64,000 nucleotides of DNA from Curvularia clavata (Eukaryota): NCBI GenBank assembly GCA_023920165.1, contig CP089274.1, forward strand, positions 5,084,001 through 5,148,000, written 5' to 3'. Shown piece by piece: positions 17,215-51,763 of this stretch. A program made the translations under genes and the position numbers. Below the pieces are notes generated by a model. The model was not told where the DNA came from, ran no database searches, and saw nothing but the letters and a program-made list of their open reading frames with translations. Numbering within the stretch: position 1 is the first letter of the stretch; each line of letters begins with the position of its first letter.

Positions 17215-17630
17215 TGCTAGCTAATAAAGTTATATATATCAGTAAAAATATATAAAATCTTTGCGTACGACTTAACTAAGAACTTATAAGAACGATCGAA
17301 GATCCGCTAGTAATACTTAAAGATACTAAAGGTACGCTTTATTATACTATATAGGCCTAAGTACTAGAGGCCAAATATTTCTTGCTAACTGTATAGTGTG
17401 CGATCTGTAGCTCTAGACTCTTGTGAATAACAGCGCACGCTTTGATATAGCAAGGGTAATATACCGCTATTAGTATATGTAGTATTAGCGAGAGAGTATT
17501 TACTGTTAGTAGGTACCCTAAAGCGTCTCTCAACTATGTCTGATCTACTCTGCTATTATAGGTTAAGCCCTCCTAACCCGCTAGTAAGTAAGTAAACTTC
17601 ATATCGAATTCTACACCCGCCAATACGTTT
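17215..17630 (-). mobile_element. PIF/Harbinger DDE transposase (DDE_Tnp_4) remnant, RIP-degraded
   Basis: NVLAGVEFDMKFTYLLAG*EGLTYNSRV (consensus-like ..LAGWEGSAHDSRV), VPTNSKYSLANTTY and EIFGL*YLGLYSIIKRTFSIFKYY*RIF. Stops are TAG at expected TGG positions; convergent with the Myb ORF. Confidence 0.8.
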
Positions 17631-21852: not shown

Positions 21853-23204
21853 AGTCTAAGATAAATCTAGTCATTAAGGCCCACTCCTGACACGGGGAAT
21901 TTGGTATAAGCCTTCTTAGGCCAATTGACAACCTAGGAGATTGTGTGACTTATACCGGTAGGGTGCCTCCGGTCGCAATCATAACGTACATGCCCTTTAT
22001 CTGCCATACCCTCACTAGATATCCACAATTCAGTCTGGGTACGTTTGAAAAGCCCACCATAACAACGCACGAAACATCTCATACCCAGCTGCAAATAGTG
22101 CAAAAGGCCTTTGTTCCTACTTTTACAGGCCATTTCGTTCTCAGTGTACTTGAATAACCTTGATGACTACGTTGCGCAACGGGACTGGTGACACAGTAAG
22201 GGCCCACGCTAGGCTTCAATGATTGGAATAGTTTGAGAACGTACTGAAGTGACAAGATGATTGTTGAGTACTAGTTAAGCAAAGGGCTTGGTTGATAAGT
22301 TAGAATAACCACGAAGGAGTGTGAGCTATAAAGGAAGTCTTATCCCTAGATATATAAACGCCTTCGTCACAATTTGGTATTGCACTGTCTGCTTCATTCT
22401 GCTAAGACAGAGCAGTGGAAGTAAATCATGTGATCTTTATACGGTTTGACTGGTCGGCGGCTGTCATCCACTATCATCCAGATCATCCGTGCCTCAATTT
22501 ATTCGTGTCCGTGAGAGTTTAATATTAGTTTCAATTTGAAAAAAAAAAGATTTATTCTATCTTGAGTTCGGCTTCCGGGTGACGGGGTTTGATGATAGTA
22601 GAGTGGATATGTCTATACCAACTTATACCGTCTTTCTAGAGGTGACGAGGGATTAGGCCGATGGTTTGGCAAGGGTTGGGGTGGCAGGCTGTATGATGAT
22701 ATATTCTTGGATCACAAAGGATGTGGAGCAGAGCATTTGTGTAGAGCGAGGTATCTTGACAAGCTGTGGGGGGTTGTATATCTTCGTGACTATATGCTAC
22801 TAGCTAACGTGATTCGTGATTCGCGAAATGCTTCGCAGTCACGTGATCGAGAGGCTCCCCGCCTTTCGTGCAGCGCATCGATCCGAAGCAAGAGCACGAA
22901 CCAATCATACCACTGACGCTCCCCTCAAGGTGCGCTATTGCGTCGCCCGTATCGTCGTGGCCATGTGATGCTTCACAGCTGCGGTATATCGCAATGACAT
23001 GACTGCGACTGCGAGAGGAAGCTAGATAATATCGGTGCATGGAATCATCTACTAAGCAAGAGCCGACGTGCGGCCCGACAGGAAACACTCGCGCCGCATC
23101 GGACAAGGCTAACGAAGCTAACACTTGCACGCGGGTGCGATGCGGACTCCGGTGCCTGACGATTCGGCATCTACCCACCACCTGTCGTGCAAAGCAGCAG
23201 CAAC

Positions 23205-25395
23205 ATGGAGCACACGGCTGCACCGACCGGCCATAACAACGCTGAAAAAACTTCCGGTCGGCGCAAAGCTTGCAACGAGTGCAAACAGCAAAAGCTTCGA
23301 TGTGATCTTGCTAGCGAGGAAGCGACAGCACTTGCAACATGTGGTAGATGTGCCCGGCTCGGCCTCGAATGCAAAATTGATCACGATTTTCGAAGGAAGA
23401 GAAAGCGCAGACGCTCGGCCGATCTGGAGAAAGAAGTTCGAGAGCTACGTGAACAGCTGGAGTCTGGTCGAAATGCATCTGGTGCTTCTGGCATGAGGGG
23501 ATGGTCGATATTTTCGCCAACGCCACCCTCAGCCTCAGCGAATGAAGCCTTGTCCACCCACTTTGCGCCCTTATCCGTAACTCAACCAGTCTCTATCCCC
23601 ACCGATGGCTCGTCAGTGAAGAGTGCAGAGGGAATCATAGGGCCGGGTACGCATGTACCTGGCCTCACTACCAGGCCAAGCATTGAAGTGCCTACGCCTC
23701 GCGGATCCATCTGGAGCGCAGAAGCGCGCCCCAGAGCACTCGGGAACACAGTATTGTCGGTGGACGAGATTGACCATCTCTACCATATGTGAGTCTTCAT
23801 CCCGCTCCAGTCCTGTATTAGCGATGACGTGGTTTGGCTGACTCCGCTTCACTTCTTCCAGCTTCACGACAGTTTACCACCCCTTTCTGCCACTCATCAA
23901 TACAACAAAGTCTCCCCATGAGCACTTTGAGAGTTCCGAGCTCTTGTTCTGGACCATCATCTCGGTGGCGTCTAGGCGCGAGGTTTCTCAGCCAACCCTG
24001 CTACCCAAGCTTGCTCGAACTGTTACAGATCTGACCTGGAGAACTTTACGGTCCATCCCTCACAATCTGTCAACAGTCCAGGCCCTTGCCTTGCTTTGTA
24101 CCTGGCCATTTCCAACAAGTAGCAGTACTCAGGATCCCACCTTTATGTTCGTTGGTCTTATGCTGCAAATTGCAACACAGATGGGCCTCCACCGCGCTCG
24201 TGACGTGCAGGACTTCACCAAAAGACCAACAACGCTGGATGCCTCGGAGTACGCCGAATGGGTACATACCTGGGCATCTTGTAATTTGGTTGCCCAAAGG
24301 TTAGTCTATACCCCTTGGCTTATGAGCCTTATTGTGAGTGGGCATTGATTGTATCGCGACTCTCAGCGTAAGCTTTGGCTGTGGACTGCCACTTCTCATC
24401 CCGACACATGACTGGGCTCCAGCAGAATATGAAAAGCGTAAAGACATGGGGTCCTTGAATTCTGGATTCTCGTTTCGATCGCGCCTTCGTATAGAACACT
24501 TTCGGCATCGTGTATCATCTTATCTCTCGCCTCCTATGCTTCCAATCAGCCACACGGCAGCCATGCAGGAAAGGACAACCATATATCGCCTGCTCAACGC
24601 GGAATTCGCTGAAATAGAGCGTGACGAGAAAGATGCGGCTGGTAAGTCTTTGAATTCTACATGACGCCGGCTTGAGTCAGAAGATAATACTCATGCAGCC
24701 TTCACAAACTGGCATCTGGCAGCAGCAAAGCTACATCTCCATGCATTTTACCTCTTCGACGATGACACCACGAGAGACTACCACGATCGTATCATTAGGT
24801 TGTATCTGACAGCATCTTCGCTTATTAAGCTGAGCCTTGACTATGACATTAACGACGGCGGGTTTCTCCACCACTGTCCTTTCTCTTGTTGCCAAGTCTT
24901 TGTCTGCGCGGCATTTGTCGTTCTCAAGATCCTCATGAACAGCTTCTTCAGAACCATGCTGGATGTTGACTCTGGCACACAGACACTCGAAGCTGCCATT
25001 GCAGCGTTGCGGAAAATGAGTGTAGTGAACAATGACCTGCCGGCGAGACTGGGCGACGTCGTAAGCTACTTCTGTGCAGTGCCTGATCCGACGGTTGTTG
25101 GGGGTGCAACTAGTGGCGACCTACGACTGCGACAAGTGCAACATAGAATGAGCATGAGCGTAGTCTACGATTGCCTGTGGACATGGAGGAAAAACCTCCA
25201 GTCAGAGCACAATGAAGCTACCGATTCTAATCATGTCGGCACACGAGATGAGTCATGCTCCTATTGTACTCAAAACACGTGGTGCTGACGCATCAAGTAC
25301 AGGTCCCACATACTTCCTACGTAGCCCCGGATACTCATGAACTCGACATCACATCAATTTTGACTGATTTTGTAGACATGGACATGCTGTTTTGA
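23205..25395 (+). CDS. Zn(II)2Cys6 transcription factor, Leu3/Sef1-like
   Basis: ACNECKQQKLRCD..CGRCARLGLECKID..FRRKRKR; fungal TF domain (YHPFLP, LFWTII, QALALLCTWPFP, QMGLH). About four introns; the 3' end is uncertain (25288 or 25395). Confidence 0.85.
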
Positions 25396-25424
25396 AAGCT
25401 ACTAACGAGACCTAACATCTTGTA

Positions 25425-25848
25425 TTGGAGCAACCTGTACAGCGGACGATTTTTACTTTCTTCGACGTGGTCTCTCAACACTATATTACACAGATCTTGG
25501 CCCTTCTCGGTGCCATCACTGGACGAGATCTAGTCTCTTTGCACGCCAAATGTAATGTTAGCTTTCGAGTCATTGACTACACCACCGCGACTGCGTCTCC
25601 TGAGAGCCTAAATGGCTGCAGCGTGCATACCGACTACGGTACTTTTGGCATTTCAGTACAGAAATGCAGACCTCGAGATAGGGGCGCCCAAGACGCCCGG
25701 AACGTGGGCCCCTGTGCCTGGCAATGCGACGGTAATGCTATGTGGGTGGTGTGCAGTGGTGTTAAGTGGGGGTAATGTAATGGCAGCACGTCACCGTGTT
25801 CGACGCGTGCCTGGAGTACGACGCCTAATGCTTCAAATTCTAAAGTGA
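25425..25848 (+). pseudogene. 2OG-Fe(II) dioxygenase fragment
   Basis: NVSFRVIDY..CSVHTDYGTF (HxD), then a frameshift to WAPVP..AARHRVRR (distal His); no N-terminal domain or ATG. Confidence 0.6.
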
Positions 25849-25956
25849 TAATAGAAACCCGTTTTATCCAGCCTGAGCTTAAACCCCCGAAAGGGAACTC
25901 CATACAATGAACAAAACTCTCACAACCTATCCATAAGAAATGCTGTTGTATTCATT

Positions 25957-26932
25957 TTACTAAATATGTTTTTAGTAGAAATGACATATACATATCTTCT
26001 AGAGCGTAGAATTAAGGTAACTTACAAGCTACATCAGCAGCCATATCTTGTGTCTATCGCACAAAGACATCATATCAAATTAGCCCTACACGAGCAGCTG
26101 TTAGCGAAGTGTCTAGTTAGTCTATTGTTTAAGAATATTAAGTCTACTTACCCCCTACACCAGTAATTATTAGTAGAGTATCTATTTAGTCTATCGATAT
26201 TAAGTCTACTTACAATCTACATAAGCAGCTATTAGCCAAGTATCTAGTTAGTCTATCACGTAAAGATATTAAGTCTACTTACAGTCTACACCAGCAGACA
26301 TTAGTAGAGTATCTAGTTAGTCTATCGACATTAAGTCTACTTACATCCTACACCAGTAGCTATTAGCAAAATATCTAGTTAGTCATTATATAAAGATATC
26401 TATTCTACTTACCCCCTAAATAAGCAGCTGTCAGTAGAGTATCTACTTAGTCTATCGCGTAAAGATATCAAGTCTACTTACAATCTACATAAGCAGCTAT
26501 TAGTAGATTGTCTAGTTAGTCTATTGTGTAAAGATATTAATTCTACTTACAACCTATATGAGCAGCTATTAGCAAAGCATCTAGTAAGTCTATCACTCGG
26601 ATATATGAAGTCTACTTACATCCTACATAAGTAGCCATTAGCAAAGCGTCTAGTTAGTTTATCGTGCAAAAATATTGAGTCTACTTACCTCCTACACGAG
26701 TAGCCATTAGTATAGTATCTAGTTAGTCTGTTGCTTAGATATAACAAGTCTACTCACAACCTACATCATAATAGATATCAGTAACTACACTATGAATCGA
26801 AAGCCATATGCTAACTCAGCTTACCTGTCTCGCGCTCAGAGATTTCTTCTGGAAAGTCTCTATTTCTCGTGAAATTACGGCTGCGTATAGCAAAGATGGC
26901 AAGAACATAGTAACAAATACAAGAAATCTCAT
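25957..26932 (-). CDS. Small secreted prepro-peptide gene built from single-codon (3-nt) micro-exons
   Basis: Exon 1 (26932-26825) is MRFLVFVTMFLPSLLYAAVISREIETFQKKSLSARQ. The 3-nt exons are 26760-58 GTT, 26691-89 GAG, 26622-20 GAT, 26553-51 GTT, 26484-82 ATT, 26415-13 GGG, 26347-45 GAT, 26285-83 ACT, 26216-14 ATT and 26154-52 GGG, then GGC TAA at 26085-80. A further CTT exon lies at 26028-26 and a TAA exon at 25959-57. Introns 1-11 all have a GTRAG donor, RCTRAY branch and TAG acceptor. Confidence 0.8.
26086..26760. repeat. Tandem array of ~69-bp units (66-nt intron plus 3-nt exon), 10 copies
   Basis: The anchor CTACTYAC-NNN-CTA recurs with spacings 62, 69, 62, 68, 69, 69, 69, 69 and 69 bp. 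Minus-strand consensus: GTAAGTAGACTTAATATCTTTACNCGATAGACTAACTAGAYRCTYTRCTAATAGCTGCTTATGTAG-NNN. Confidence 0.95.
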
Positions 26933-27199
26933 GTTGATGTATGTCGATGTAAATAGTAACAAAGATACGTAGTCTGTGTCTAATAACTACTTTACGCTCT
27001 AGATGAAGTACATTTCTTATAATTGGAATAATGCTATCGTATCGTAGCAGTCTTGCGACAGATGGTTGACTACAGCCAAGATATAGCGGTGAGCTAGATG
27101 CTACATAAAATTGCGAGTGGTGTGTGGCGGTGAGATGAATATTTCATGCTATTGCGATTAGTGCGAGGATACTACATCTCAACAAGAAAAAGCATCTAT

Positions 27200-27495
27200 T
27201 AACGCATTCCAGGCCAGGAAACAAAGCTGTCGAACGGGCTTCCAAAGAGGCCACAGGATGGAAAGAGGACGACCGCAGCCACCCACTAGCAGATGCGCCG
27301 CCAATACTCTATCCGATTAGGTAGACCGTCAGGCCCTGCTAGTGCAGCTGCGTACTAAGAAGATAAGCATACTCGACTTTCTCTTCATCCAAAAATTCCT
27401 AGGTTTTACTAGCTCCCGCTGCTAGTGCCGGAAGAGATAACAAACTACCACCTACACCCTACTCTACTATAGGATCCTAAAGGACATCTAGAACT
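27200..27495 (+). mobile_element. Tad1-like LINE 3' fragment (RNase H end plus C-terminal Zn finger), degraded
   Basis: HSRPGNKAVERASKEATGW (RNase H tail resembling GNEAADRAAK) and ALLVQLRTKKISILDFLF..SRC*CRKR*QTTTYTLLYY (degenerate CxC..H...C finger). Confidence 0.65.
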
Positions 27496-28675: not shown

Positions 28676-30303
28676 GTACGCTATAAAATATCTCTTCTCT
28701 TCTCTTATATTTCAAAGTCATCCAGATACGTCTTCTCTAGTGTAGGGACGTGTGCGGCTAATTCCCTTTGGATTTCTAGATTAAGTATCTCACTCAAGAG
28801 ATAACCCACTGGTGATAGAAAGATCAGCCACTTCATTGATTGGTCCTGCATGTGGTAAAGTGGCAGGTTGAGTAAATACAGGCTAAACAGCTTGGGCCAT
28901 GACGAGTGTAGATTAATTGCAGGACTGACTAACTCGTAGTCCCCTCAGAAATATCGATTGCGGTATTTTATCGATCAAGCATATCGAAGGGATCCTGCTT
29001 CATCATCGCTCTGCGGTCAGCGCAAAGGATATCTATTGCAAGTCACCCGACCCCTAGCCGTTCACCGGTCTAGAATTAGGTGAGCAGGCAGCTGACTTGA
29101 GGTTTTCAAGTCGTTGTAGTACCCCTGAAAATTGATTCTAAGCTACAGCATGAGTCAATAGGGCTGTGAAAGGATTTACGCCAGTATTGAATTAGTCAAA
29201 TAGATGCATCCTTACTCTAGTTGGCGCGCCTGAATGTCAGGCGAAAATTCCACACCAAGGCCATCCTACCAACACGATAAGACACGAGATTTTCTAACGG
29301 ACACGAACTTCTGTTGAAGAATACGAGCTTATTCCTATACTATTATTGGGATATATCATAGGCTAGGCCGCCAACATCTGACTTAAGGATGCACCAATCG
29401 ATTGGAAAGAATGCGAGGCCTTTTAGCGCCCCTCATTCGTACACTGGTACACTCTCATGTGCTTACCTCTTTTTTTTGCATGCTGTCCAGATTGCATATG
29501 ACGCCAAGCACCTCTCGCCCAACTATCATCTTACATGCTAGCCGTAACCGAACAACGCTAGCTTGTGTCAGCAGTACCGTATGCGAGAGTATTAGGATAT
29601 ACTTGAACCAATTACAGTCTGGCATTGACAGGACTAAGATATTTGAGGCAGGTACTTACGGGTTGAGAGAGAGGCTTGGCGTGAGGTGTAACCTATACTG
29701 CATGCAAAAAACGAGAACTGTAAGCGTATGAAAGCGTATGAGGATGCACGTGGGGCCGGGTTTACTCAAGACTGTGACCTCAACCAGGCCTGCAACAACG
29801 TCCACATCCACTTCGGTCCTTCTGCTGTTCCACTGGACATTTCCGTATAAGGGTTTGCATAATCCGTTCTGACCAATAGTCCATAACAAGTTCGAGTAAG
29901 CTCGTGATAGTAGCAAATCAGCCTTACCAGAATGAGTAGGAACCATTCTCGTGGACTTACTTCCTATACTAATATCAGTGTACATCCTAGGCCAGGCCAC
30001 CAATATCATATTTAGAAGTTGCCATAAACAATTGGAGAAAGGAAATATCTTGGCATGGCGGTTACGAAGAGTCCCTTAAGGATCAAGTATATTTAAGAAA
30101 CGTTCATTCCCGTCAAAGCTCTATCTCCAGTCTGCTCAATACATTCAGTCCTCATAGGCGGTATCAAAACATTGGTAAGTTACTGAAGCCCCCTCAACTA
30201 CCTTAGCTCAAGGATAATATAACCAATACGAGAAAAAAGACTTTTCACCAAGACCTCATCTCAAAATGCATTCAAAACCTTAAAAACTCAGCAATCCACC
30301 AAG

Positions 30304-37180: not shown

Positions 37181-38079
37181 GTCGGGGTGGGGCGCTCGGG
37201 GCGTTGGCTAGTCCGTCACAGTACAGCTAGCACGAACTACTAATCGATCTAGGATAACTCACCGGTAGGATGCCTCGCTGCGCTAAAATGCTCAGCCTGG
37301 TCTGTTTATAATTCATACACTCACTACCCCGCATCTCACACACTCTGCACTTGCTCAAACAGCACGTATATCTGGCTTCAAGCTCTTGGATCACAGTTAG
37401 CGTTAGCGCAAAAGAATTACCATCGAATCACATATAATTATATGAATTAGTTATCTAGTTTTAGGAGAGAATGTTCTAATTTCTACGAACCCATTTCCAT
37501 AAAGGCAGATATCATTTTCCATTTACAGGCAGTGCTGCGCCGTCCATGCCGTCAAAACCAAAACCCTCAAGTCCAGAGAACGATAATAAGCCCCCAGCGA
37601 CGACTGCGGCAGCGAAGAAGAAGCCTCGAAAGCTGGCGCCTAAGAACGACGATGCCACATCCAATACCAACTAAACGACTGCACCGAAGAAAGTGCCCAG
37701 AAAGCTTGAACCGCGGAAGCCTGATGCGGCTGCTCAACATTTCATCTCACGAACTTGCATTATTTTAGTGTAGCGATTGTTTGTGCGTTTAGACGTCATG
37801 CCTGGGGTTATAAGGCACGTTGTGGGGTGAAGATGCTACGCCACATGATGAGCCTCGGGGCTAACTATATGTAAGACGTTGGGAATCCTACGCAATCATG
37901 CTGCGCCACGCAATAAGCCTCGTTTCTAACCACAGACATGCTATTGAAAATCCTACACAATTATGCTGCGCCATATCTACATATATAACAAAAGGATAAA
38001 TCTCGTCATGCATAATGTTTCTCGCGCGACACTACGATATAGTGAGTGAGTGCGTGCTGTTGCCCAAGCAAAACCCGCC

Positions 38080-50439: not shown

Positions 50440-51763
50440 TATGTTGGGCAAAAGGGTTTTGAAAGAGTGACTGAGAAGGGTGAGAAGAGTGAGAAAGGAG
50501 AGGACGCAACGTCGCGATACGAGCGCAACCCGTTTATTAGGTCTTATCGTATCCCTATTTCACCGAAGGTGCACCTTAAAGAAGACAGCCAATTGTGGCG
50601 GGGAGGCGGGGCGCTTACAAGAGCCTGCCCGTCGAGCATGCACGCTCTCAGACAATAGTGGGTCGCGAGTGACATTGGCGCGCAAATCCTCGTACTTCCT
50701 CCAAGCCAGCGCGATACCGCTAACTGACAAACGTTGAACAAACGCGTGCACGACCCTAAGACTAATTTCGAAGCCGGTGAAAACGTTGCCTTTGGGAAAG
50801 CCTAGAAAAGAAAGGGGAGCCCGCTAGCATGAGGCGGAGCTGCCGTGGCTTGTTGCTCTGGAATCTGTCAGCTGTTAGACGTTGACTAGCATGGCGTACC
50901 AGGGAAAGCGACCAACAGAACGATCGCTACTAATGTCAGGGCGTCCCCATTTGTCTGCTATCTTTAGCCCAACAATCCTTCGAAAGAGCGACCGTGCCTC
51001 TTCTCGTACTGAATCCTTCTATATTCTCTGAATCCATCTGCGTGCGCGGGTCCGCTAGCGGGTAAGTAGGTAGGGCTGCACACATCTTATTACAGGGGTT
51101 GTCACTAGTACAGGGTAAAAACGTTTGAGAGATTAAAGGCTAGCGTCAGAAATGTGAGAGCATAAGGCTGAGGGGCCAACCAATGGTTTAAGTTGGCCCG
51201 ACACATGGGAGCTTGTCTAGTCCACGCGTCGCGGGCCGTCTACCCTTGCGTTCGGAGTTGATGGTTAGCGACGCCGATGAGCTCACGTTAGCTTTGTCAC
51301 ATATTGATCAACCCATTGTGCCTAGTGTTTGTCTTCATAATCTCCTTGGAGAGGTTGTTACTGCCAAAAACGCGAGAGAAAGCTTGCATGTGCATGGTCT
51401 CTGAGGAGAGCGTGATGAAAGGAAAAGCAGTGTTAGCTTCCTTCTGAGTTATGGATAACTTTGGGCAAAAGGGATTTCGATTGATTGATCCTTTGTCGTC
51501 TGATCTTCCATATCAGTGAAACAATCAAACTGCCTGCTACTAGCCTGACCCCGTCTTGGTGACACGGTGATCAGCTGATACTTAACTAACTCAATGCCTT
51601 ATCAGATTTTGATTAGACTAATCTGACAACGAAAAGCTGTGGCGATTACAGCTACTTTTCAAAGTAGGATAGATTTGTAGGCCGACATTCTCCGGTTCCA
51701 CCAGCTGTGGGAGAGCTGAACCATGGACCAGATCAACTAACTTTGACTGAAAGAAAAGAAGTT

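Follow-up and report, generated by a model that had tools for sequence, protein, structure and literature searches.

Analysis of a 64,000-nt stretch of Curvularia clavata contig CP089274.1 (positions 5,084,001 to 5,148,000 of the forward strand; the whole stretch is referred to here as the window) revealed a tandem array on the minus strand in which intron-like units alternate with spacers of exactly three nucleotides. As read from the sequence, the evidence supports an array laid out like a genuine gene whose exons are the size of a codon, because the splice signals of the array are conserved, coding-type constraint was seen in at least 40 unrelated families of similar arrays, some of these arrays run into frames encoding HET domains, and genes with exons of this size have been published from Tuber. 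With a probability of about 0.55, eleven phase-0 introns and ten internal exons of one codon each make up a small gene here, which arose by tandem duplication of an intron plus a codon and would encode a 47-residue precursor with a putative signal peptide. The predicted protein-coding gene would run on the minus strand from 26932 to about 25900, with the codon-sized mini-exon array lying behind a 108-nt exon and followed by GGC TAA.

Organization of the codon-sized exon array

The first-pass annotation had described the units of a 69-bp repeat as canonical introns, each followed by three nucleotides, behind a 108-nt first exon. A re-reading of 25700-27200 on the minus strand matched this description letter for letter: exon 1 starts with the ATG at 26932 and ends in phase 0 at GTAAGC (Table 1). 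The eleven intron-like units were 64, 66, 66, 66, 66, 66, 65, 59, 66, 59, and 66 nt long, in order. Nine of the donors were GTAAGT, one was GTAAGC and one was GTGAGT, and within the units a branch motif (CTAAT, CTAAC, or CTGAC) lay about 16 nt ahead of the TAG acceptor. The 3-nt spacers read, in order, GTT GAG GAT GTT ATT GGG GAT ACT ATT GGG GGC, then TAA. All of these triplets were sense, as had been claimed, and the joined frame contained 47 codons. The TAA falls at a point where the first ~10 nt of the following unit, among them its donor, are missing.

All 11 junctions had the form AG-NNN-GT(A/G)AG(T/C) with a spacer of exactly 3 nt, despite intron lengths that ranged from 59 to 66 nt. The indels of 1 and 7 nt were all found inside units and none in triplets, again in agreement with the first reading. 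Periods of 69 and 138 were called by Tandem Repeats Finder. The junction motif TAGNNNGTRAGT occurred 15 times in the window (0.78 expected), and 11 of these occurrences were in the array; the two-junction pattern occurred seven times in the window versus 0.00 times in shuffles. Copies of the unit were confined to the tandem array within the 64-kb window.

Ten repeated units were aligned, giving 14 splice-signal columns (donor, branch, and acceptor), 52 other intron columns, and 3 triplet columns. Mismatches to the consensus made up 4 of 140 positions in the signal columns, 97 of 520 (18.7%) in the other intron columns, and 14 of 30 in the triplets. The four signal mismatches were all transitions to permitted forms, which bears out the earlier statement that the splice signals vary solely among permitted variants. 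The probability that 14 randomly drawn intron columns carry four or fewer mismatches was 0.001. In the local composition, the probability of an ATG frame ending in phase at the fixed donor is about 0.013. On the favored reading, selection has preserved all three splice signals in each unit as the codons diverged.

Tandem duplication of an intron-carrying segment is the likely origin of the array, with one intron plus one codon being duplicated repeatedly. The number of unit copies could thus change without a frameshift, each copy adding one residue to the product. Because all introns are in phase 0, skipping any subset of the codons would stay in frame, and therefore one locus could yield a family of peptide variants, as passages on the Tuber melanosporum NACHT-ANK (nank) genes report for those genes.

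A contig assembled from run X2, a DNA-like run of another sample, replaced 91 nt of the array (26355-26447) with 98 others. The array therefore differs between samples.

Predicted product

The predicted product, a precursor of 47 residues, would retain about 30 of them once the putative signal peptide is removed. After the initial MR, residues 3-17 form the hydrophobic stretch FLVFVTMFLPSLLYA (mean Kyte-Doolittle value of 2.09), which is signal-peptide-like. The predicted tail of the precursor, VEDVIGDTIGG, is acidic and hydrophobic. Pfam contained no domain matching exon 1, and no NACHT or ankyrin domain was found in the scanned open reading frames (ORFs) of at least 100 aa near the array.

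It had been proposed that Kex2-type processing releases the 12-mer QVEDVIGDTIGG. Kex2 prefers the dibasic sites KR and RR. The proposed release was not supported because the site, S-A-R/Q, is monobasic; it was the single such site in the joined frame, from which KR and RR were absent and in which neither the 12-mer nor any other peptide was repeated.

A layout-only scan for similar arrays

The first-pass annotation had suggested scanning genomes for tandem arrays of this kind. Such a scan was run on metagenome contigs and used the layout alone: GTAAGT, 40-70 nt, TAG NNN GTAAGT, 40-70 nt, TAG NNN GTAAGT. A rough estimate of our own anticipated a few chance matches; at least 121 metagenome stretches were matched. 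Among the matches listed, 33 were (GTAA)n low-complexity sequence and were dropped from the counts, 33 were without a six-junction chain, and 10 had few or invariant triplets. At least 45 loci contained chains with a minimum of six junctions and four distinct triplets, and these variable arrays grouped into at least 40 intron families. The window's unit was not detectably homologous to any of them, so the scanned arrays represent independent instances of the layout. Several of the scanned arrays began alike, with GTAAGTAGAC(C/T)T.

The 3-nt spacer was kept almost everywhere while intron length varied: 37 of 37 junctions in L104, 34 of 34 in L045, 31 of 31 in L113, and 34 of 35 in L009. L061:650-3014 (plus strand) contained 35 consecutive 3-nt exons, in which 19 repeated introns had 4 introns on one side and 12 on the other, the identity among these outer introns being at the level of shuffles. 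L018:1000-2524 (plus strand) contained about 20 consecutive 3-nt exons between 18 unrelated introns (mean identity 0.56 vs. 0.52 in shuffles). In these two loci, as read from their letters, the 3-nt-exon layout outlives the identity of the repeat. L055:1450-1810 (plus strand) had a signal-peptide-like first exon followed by six codon exons between unrelated introns, and thus has a plan in common with the window gene. Several of the stretches encoded in L061, L018, and L055 were cysteine-rich (in L018, ...PCCYHECGYIWK). Pfam searches found no domain in the flanks of these three loci or in 30 further flanking frames of array loci.

Three very AT-rich loci on 2-3.5 kb contigs (L163, L156, and L210) came from records titled Mycoplasma sp. 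MAG. In them, variable 3-nt exons alternated with some 25-30 near-identical introns, each about 30 nt long (GTAAGTGATTAATATTAATTCATTATTTAG); one triplet was TGA, and L163 terminated in GGGGATT repeats resembling a telomere. These contigs are probably mis-binned, gene-sized ciliate chromosomes, which would put the layout in a very different eukaryote.

Triplets of the look-alike arrays are depleted in stop codons

Among the matches listed, the 614 triplets of the variable arrays included two stops versus 34.9 expected from shuffling positions within chains, a count that still includes some overlapping loci. A conservative count, in which each different triplet was taken once per intron family, gave 308 distinct triplets in 40 intron families among the matches listed, with two stops versus 14.5 expected (binomial P = 4.6e-5). 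Both stops belonged to families with donors decayed to ATAAGT. TAA and TGA were absent among the counted triplets; GAA, CAA, AAA, and AGA were common. The absence of these two stops is not accounted for by competing splice sites, because TAT was common despite an overlapping donor-like GTATGT. In 36 of 38 chains among the matches listed, the triplet columns were more variable than the intron interior.

As a control, the same pattern was searched in prokaryote genomes. It matched 94 stretches, and the long arrays among them were cyanobacterial CRISPR arrays with an invariant "triplet" that belongs to the repeat itself. Triplet mismatch in these arrays was 0-0.05 versus 0.25-0.35 in the interior, the reverse of the metagenome chains. 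In cyanobacterial records L126, L127, and L146, the Nostocales CRISPR repeat GTTTCAATCCCTAATAGGGAGTAAGTGAAATTTCAAC with its variable spacers fits the splice-like pattern, and any scan for AG-NNN-GTAAGT arrays will pick up false positives from this repeat. Within the metagenome set, L005 had an invariant GGA triplet and the donor context seen in cyanobacterial CRISPR, so it is probably a CRISPR array; L033 was bacterial.

Four further loci (L056, L086, L098, and L108) had many ATAAGT donors (G to A after T), TAG triplets, and differences that were mostly transitions. Their appearance is that of mini-exon arrays damaged by repeat-induced point mutation (RIP).

Arrays inside HET and ankyrin genes

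Two of the scanned arrays led into long frames encoding a HET domain. In L067 (minus strand; frame L067:412-1308:-), a 15-codon ATG exon and then a run of one-codon exons preceded the HET frame (Pfam E = 1.1e-26), and in L062:1400-2665 (plus strand) an 11-codon ATG exon and a run of one-codon exons were followed by the HET frame (Pfam E = 1.5e-25); the runs in these two loci comprised 8-9 codon exons. L106:1-1741 (plus strand) was similar to both by motif. Ahead of the HET frames, these three loci contained 8-20 one-codon exons. The first ATG in the HET frame was found at residue 177 in L067 and residue 170 in L062, well inside the domain, and the frames closed five and zero codons 5' of the acceptor, respectively. 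Because there is no earlier ATG and the frames close upstream, the start codon of both HET frames must come through the array. In L023, a 436-residue ankyrin-repeat frame passed into an array at its C terminus.

Searching with the L067 frame in HMMER gave 33,322 matches. The nearest, at 87% identity, was an unspliced ORF call, and ten N-termini among the matches were uninformative on the spliced form. The L067 match belonged to a 19-member protein cluster, of which 15 of 19 members were listed, all of them metagenome ORF calls.

Comparison with known systems

Passages in five papers citing Iotti et al. (2012) describe the nank genes of Tuber melanosporum as carrying tens to dozens of consecutive 3-bp "codon-sized" mini-exons, which are alternatively spliced, have transcript support, and are proposed to diversify the protein (PMC4986451, PMC3689799, PMC10197012, PMC13449251, PMC9815663). 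Where passages from papers of 2022-2026 in this set mention 3-bp mini-exons, they name the Tuber NACHT-ANK genes only, and the passage from the 2026 paper calls them a "lineage-specific strategy". The view of the first-pass annotation that no fungal family like this one had been described is not supported, given the nank family as these passages describe it, and the combinatorial exon skipping which it suggested agrees with what is published on those genes. A full-text literature search for tandem or consecutive 3-nt exons found no arrays beyond the Tuber work, which was reached via HET/NLR genes.

The window gene and the nank genes, as these passages describe them, are alike in having consecutive 3-bp exons in a fungal nuclear gene; the window gene shares this layout, with 11 of 11 junctions and an open frame. 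It differs in its 47-codon signal-peptide-like frame, which contains neither NACHT nor ankyrin. Since these parts are absent, the window gene stands outside the nank family. L023, with ankyrin repeats followed by an array, looks like a member of the family as described. The hosts differ as well: the window comes from a Pleosporaceae-like fungus (Dothideomycetes) and the nank genes come from a truffle (Pezizomycetes). The architecture itself was thus already known from what is reported for Tuber; new here are a different kind of gene and a different fungus.

In the micro-exon genes (MEGs) of schistosomes, a signal-peptide exon is accompanied by many symmetric, phase-preserving micro-exons whose skipping produces secreted variants. 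The host is an animal, MEG exons measure anywhere from several to tens of nt, and long, unrelated introns lie between them. In the window gene, by contrast, every internal exon has a length of 3 nt, and short tandem copies form the introns.

Introner-like elements of Dothideomycetes are near-identical introns dispersed among unrelated genes and reported to fold stably. They resemble the window array in having near-identical introns and occur in the same fungal class. The window array nevertheless does not fit this description: the copies were strictly tandem within the 64-kb window, and their fold z-scores were +0.65 to +1.85. Many near-identical spliceosomal introns in one genome are also described for the introners of Micromonas (PMC3488318). 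According to passages on intron gain, tandem genomic duplication of a segment with splice signals can create new introns while leaving the protein nearly unchanged (PMC4974935, PMC2891723). The cases described there involve one or a few introns, whereas here a whole intron plus one codon was iterated at least ten times.

Very small exons are reported in other filamentous fungi: two 3-nt exons in lipS of Dactylellina haptotyla (PMC5639578), a 1-nt exon in CYP621A of Fusarium (PMC12940212), and a functional microexon in Xlr2 of Trichoderma (PMC11121469). These reports make exons of 1-3 nt plausible in filamentous fungi. In the passages describing them, the exons are isolated in ordinary genes, in contrast to the array in the window.

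Alternative explanations

Several observations weigh against a functional mini-exon gene at this locus. Sense triplets at all 10-11 positions were not significant alone, and a 9-column block within the unit was as variable as the triplets. The array was AT-rich (GC of 0.34 vs. 0.47 in the flanks), with RIP-like dinucleotides: TpA/ApT was 1.86 versus 0.83 in the flanks, and (CpA+TpG)/(ApC+GpT) was 0.57 versus 1.23. The stop codon is located in a truncated unit, with further degenerate units 3' of it, and the frame may therefore owe its present end to decay. The frame has only 47 codons, its exon-1 part had no match in Pfam, and when extended to 56 aa the exon-1 frame had no candidate relative in the protein collection. 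Decay was plain to see in comparable arrays such as L056 and L086, in which ATAAGT donors and TAG triplets occurred. An nhmmer search with the window's unit against the 121 loci listed from the metagenome scan found nothing significant, so the class-level evidence stems from non-homologous arrays. Transcription, splicing, secretion, and exon skipping at the locus are inferred from its letters.

The composition of the array, the position of its stop and the degenerate units behind it, the decay seen in L056 and L086, and the frame without relatives in the protein collection or Pfam are all points in favor of a decaying relic, the main rival to the favored reading, although one we consider unlikely. 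The repeat would then go back to a unit of one intron plus one codon, which may have belonged to a longer NLR/HET-type gene, and would no longer be expressed as a coding gene; its short ATG frame and its unbroken signals would be leftovers. Decay is difficult to reconcile with the splice sites: none of the 11 donors and none of the 11 acceptors were broken, though 18.7% of the other intron cells were off consensus, and 7 of 10 repeated-unit donors lay in the RIP-prone TpG context yet were intact. A phase-0 ATG frame with a hydrophobic N-terminus is also improbable by chance (about 0.013 for the frame alone), and no remnant of HET, NACHT, or ankyrin was found in the scanned ORFs of at least 100 aa near the array.

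It is improbable that the array is spliced and its triplets are irrelevant, either because splicing takes out the whole array in one or a few large introns or because it is a non-coding RNA with an intron or splicing function, such as regulatory delay, spliceosome load, or intron-derived RNA as in tandem-intron snoRNA host genes. The intron interior was better conserved than the "exons", as in host genes with an intronic product, and the tandem introns of SNORD115/116 offer a precedent as described. The units, however, contained no Rfam family, the sole match being at chance level on the other strand (E = 0.36; 21 bits vs. a gathering threshold of 65), and they folded no better than shuffles (z of +0.65 to +1.85). 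With both of these tests negative, a structured RNA or snoRNA host was rejected. The depletion of stops, the exact 3-nt spacing despite intron indels, and the ATG-less HET frames in look-alike arrays also argue for triplets that are read as codons. Least credible of all is a minisatellite acting at the DNA level without an RNA role, as a regulatory or structural intergenic repeat whose likeness to introns is a coincidence. Minisatellites are common, and the array is situated in a 1-kb gap that adjoins a transcription-factor gene at its 3' end; but donor, branch, acceptor, intron-like length, 3-nt spacer, phase-matched ATG exon, and stop would all have to coincide, and the layout recurs with coding-type constraint in at least 40 unrelated repeat families. 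Since the units neither match an RNA family nor fold better than shuffles, splicing without coding and a minisatellite are both less likely.

Locus features and surroundings

Table 1. Features of the mini-exon locus and its convergent neighbor, with positions in the window.
Feature	Position	Strand	Basis
Possible TATA box, TATAAG, ~85-90 nt 5' of the ATG	27016..27021	-	Motif search; function inferred only
Exon 1: ATG + 35 codons, 108 nt, MRFLVFVTMFLPSLLYAAVISREIETFQKKSLSARQ, phase-0 end at GTAAGC	26825..26932	-	Sequence reading
Intron 1: 64 nt, GTAAGC...CTGAT...TAG; weak resemblance to repeat unit	26761..26824	-	Sequence reading
Array: ten 69-bp units, each an intron + codon-sized exon	26086..26760	-	Tandem Repeats Finder, alignment
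Codon-sized exons 1-5	GTT 26758-26760, GAG 26689-26691, GAT 26620-26622, GTT 26551-26553, ATT 26482-26484	-	
Codon-sized exons 6-10	GGG 26413-26415, GAT 26345-26347, ACT 26283-26285, ATT 26214-26216, GGG 26152-26154	-	
Introns 2-6	26692-26757, 26623-26688, 26554-26619, 26485-26550, 26416-26481	-	
Introns 7-11	26348-26412, 26286-26344, 26217-26282, 26155-26213, 26086-26151	-	
Start of last exon: GGC, then stop TAA (26082-26080)	26080..26085	-	Sequence reading
Decayed repeat remnants, presumed 3' untranslated region	25919..26079	-	Sequence reading
Donor-less truncated unit ending TAG CTT GTAAGT	26020-26031	-	Sequence reading
Junction-like TAG GTT GTGAGA	near 25919-25930	-	Sequence reading
Convergent neighbor: Zn2Cys6 transcription-factor gene, Zn_clus + Fungal_trans domains	23187..25897	+	ORF and Pfam

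The other genes of the window were of ordinary housekeeping types, and none was of the HET, NACHT, or ankyrin type. Its conserved BRCT protein was 88% identical to a Bipolaris maydis protein and 86% identical to an Alternaria alternata protein. Four isolated TAGNNNGTRAGT sites were found off the array: 29955-29966 (minus strand), and 51056-51067, 38040-38051, and 17582-17593 (all plus strand). Judging by the motif, some of these could be single 3-nt exons of other genes.

None of the sequencing runs listed for the locus was recorded as RNA, and read coverage of four of them gave no RNA over the array, which carries no information on its expression. Contigs from runs X3 and X5, which we guess to be RNA, fell within 25500-25898 alone, which is the 3' end of the transcription-factor gene, and ended at 25896 and 25898. 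Run X1 covered 26989-27157 alone, and the DNA-like run X2 covered the array in pieces. One contig of run X5 skipped 94 nt (25537-25630) bounded by CT..AC on the plus strand, which is GT..AG on the minus strand. The skip falls in the 3' end of the plus-strand transcription-factor gene, where the commoner contig was unspliced. This hints at spliced antisense RNA made from the strand that carries the mini-exon gene.

Implications

If the window gene is spliced as read, it would be invisible to ordinary gene finders and aligners, and so would the whole class of at least 45 loci in at least 40 families. A series of 3-nt exons would also offer a clean natural test of the minimum exon size of the spliceosome. 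The presence of the layout in a Dothideomycete, before HET domains, and in small signal-peptide genes would broaden it to a general mechanism for variable peptides.

Tentatively, and at somewhat less than even odds, codon-sized exon arrays may be a widespread eukaryotic layout that arises repeatedly by duplication of an intron plus a codon, is under coding selection, and supplies hypervariable peptides. Were this the case, the layout would take in the N-termini of HET cell-death proteins, the tails of ankyrin proteins, small signal-peptide genes, and ciliate-like gene-sized chromosomes with 30-nt introns. Phase-0 codon skipping would then let one locus produce a population of peptides, and the product of the window gene would be a peptide that a Pleosporaceae fungus secretes in combinatorially variable forms.

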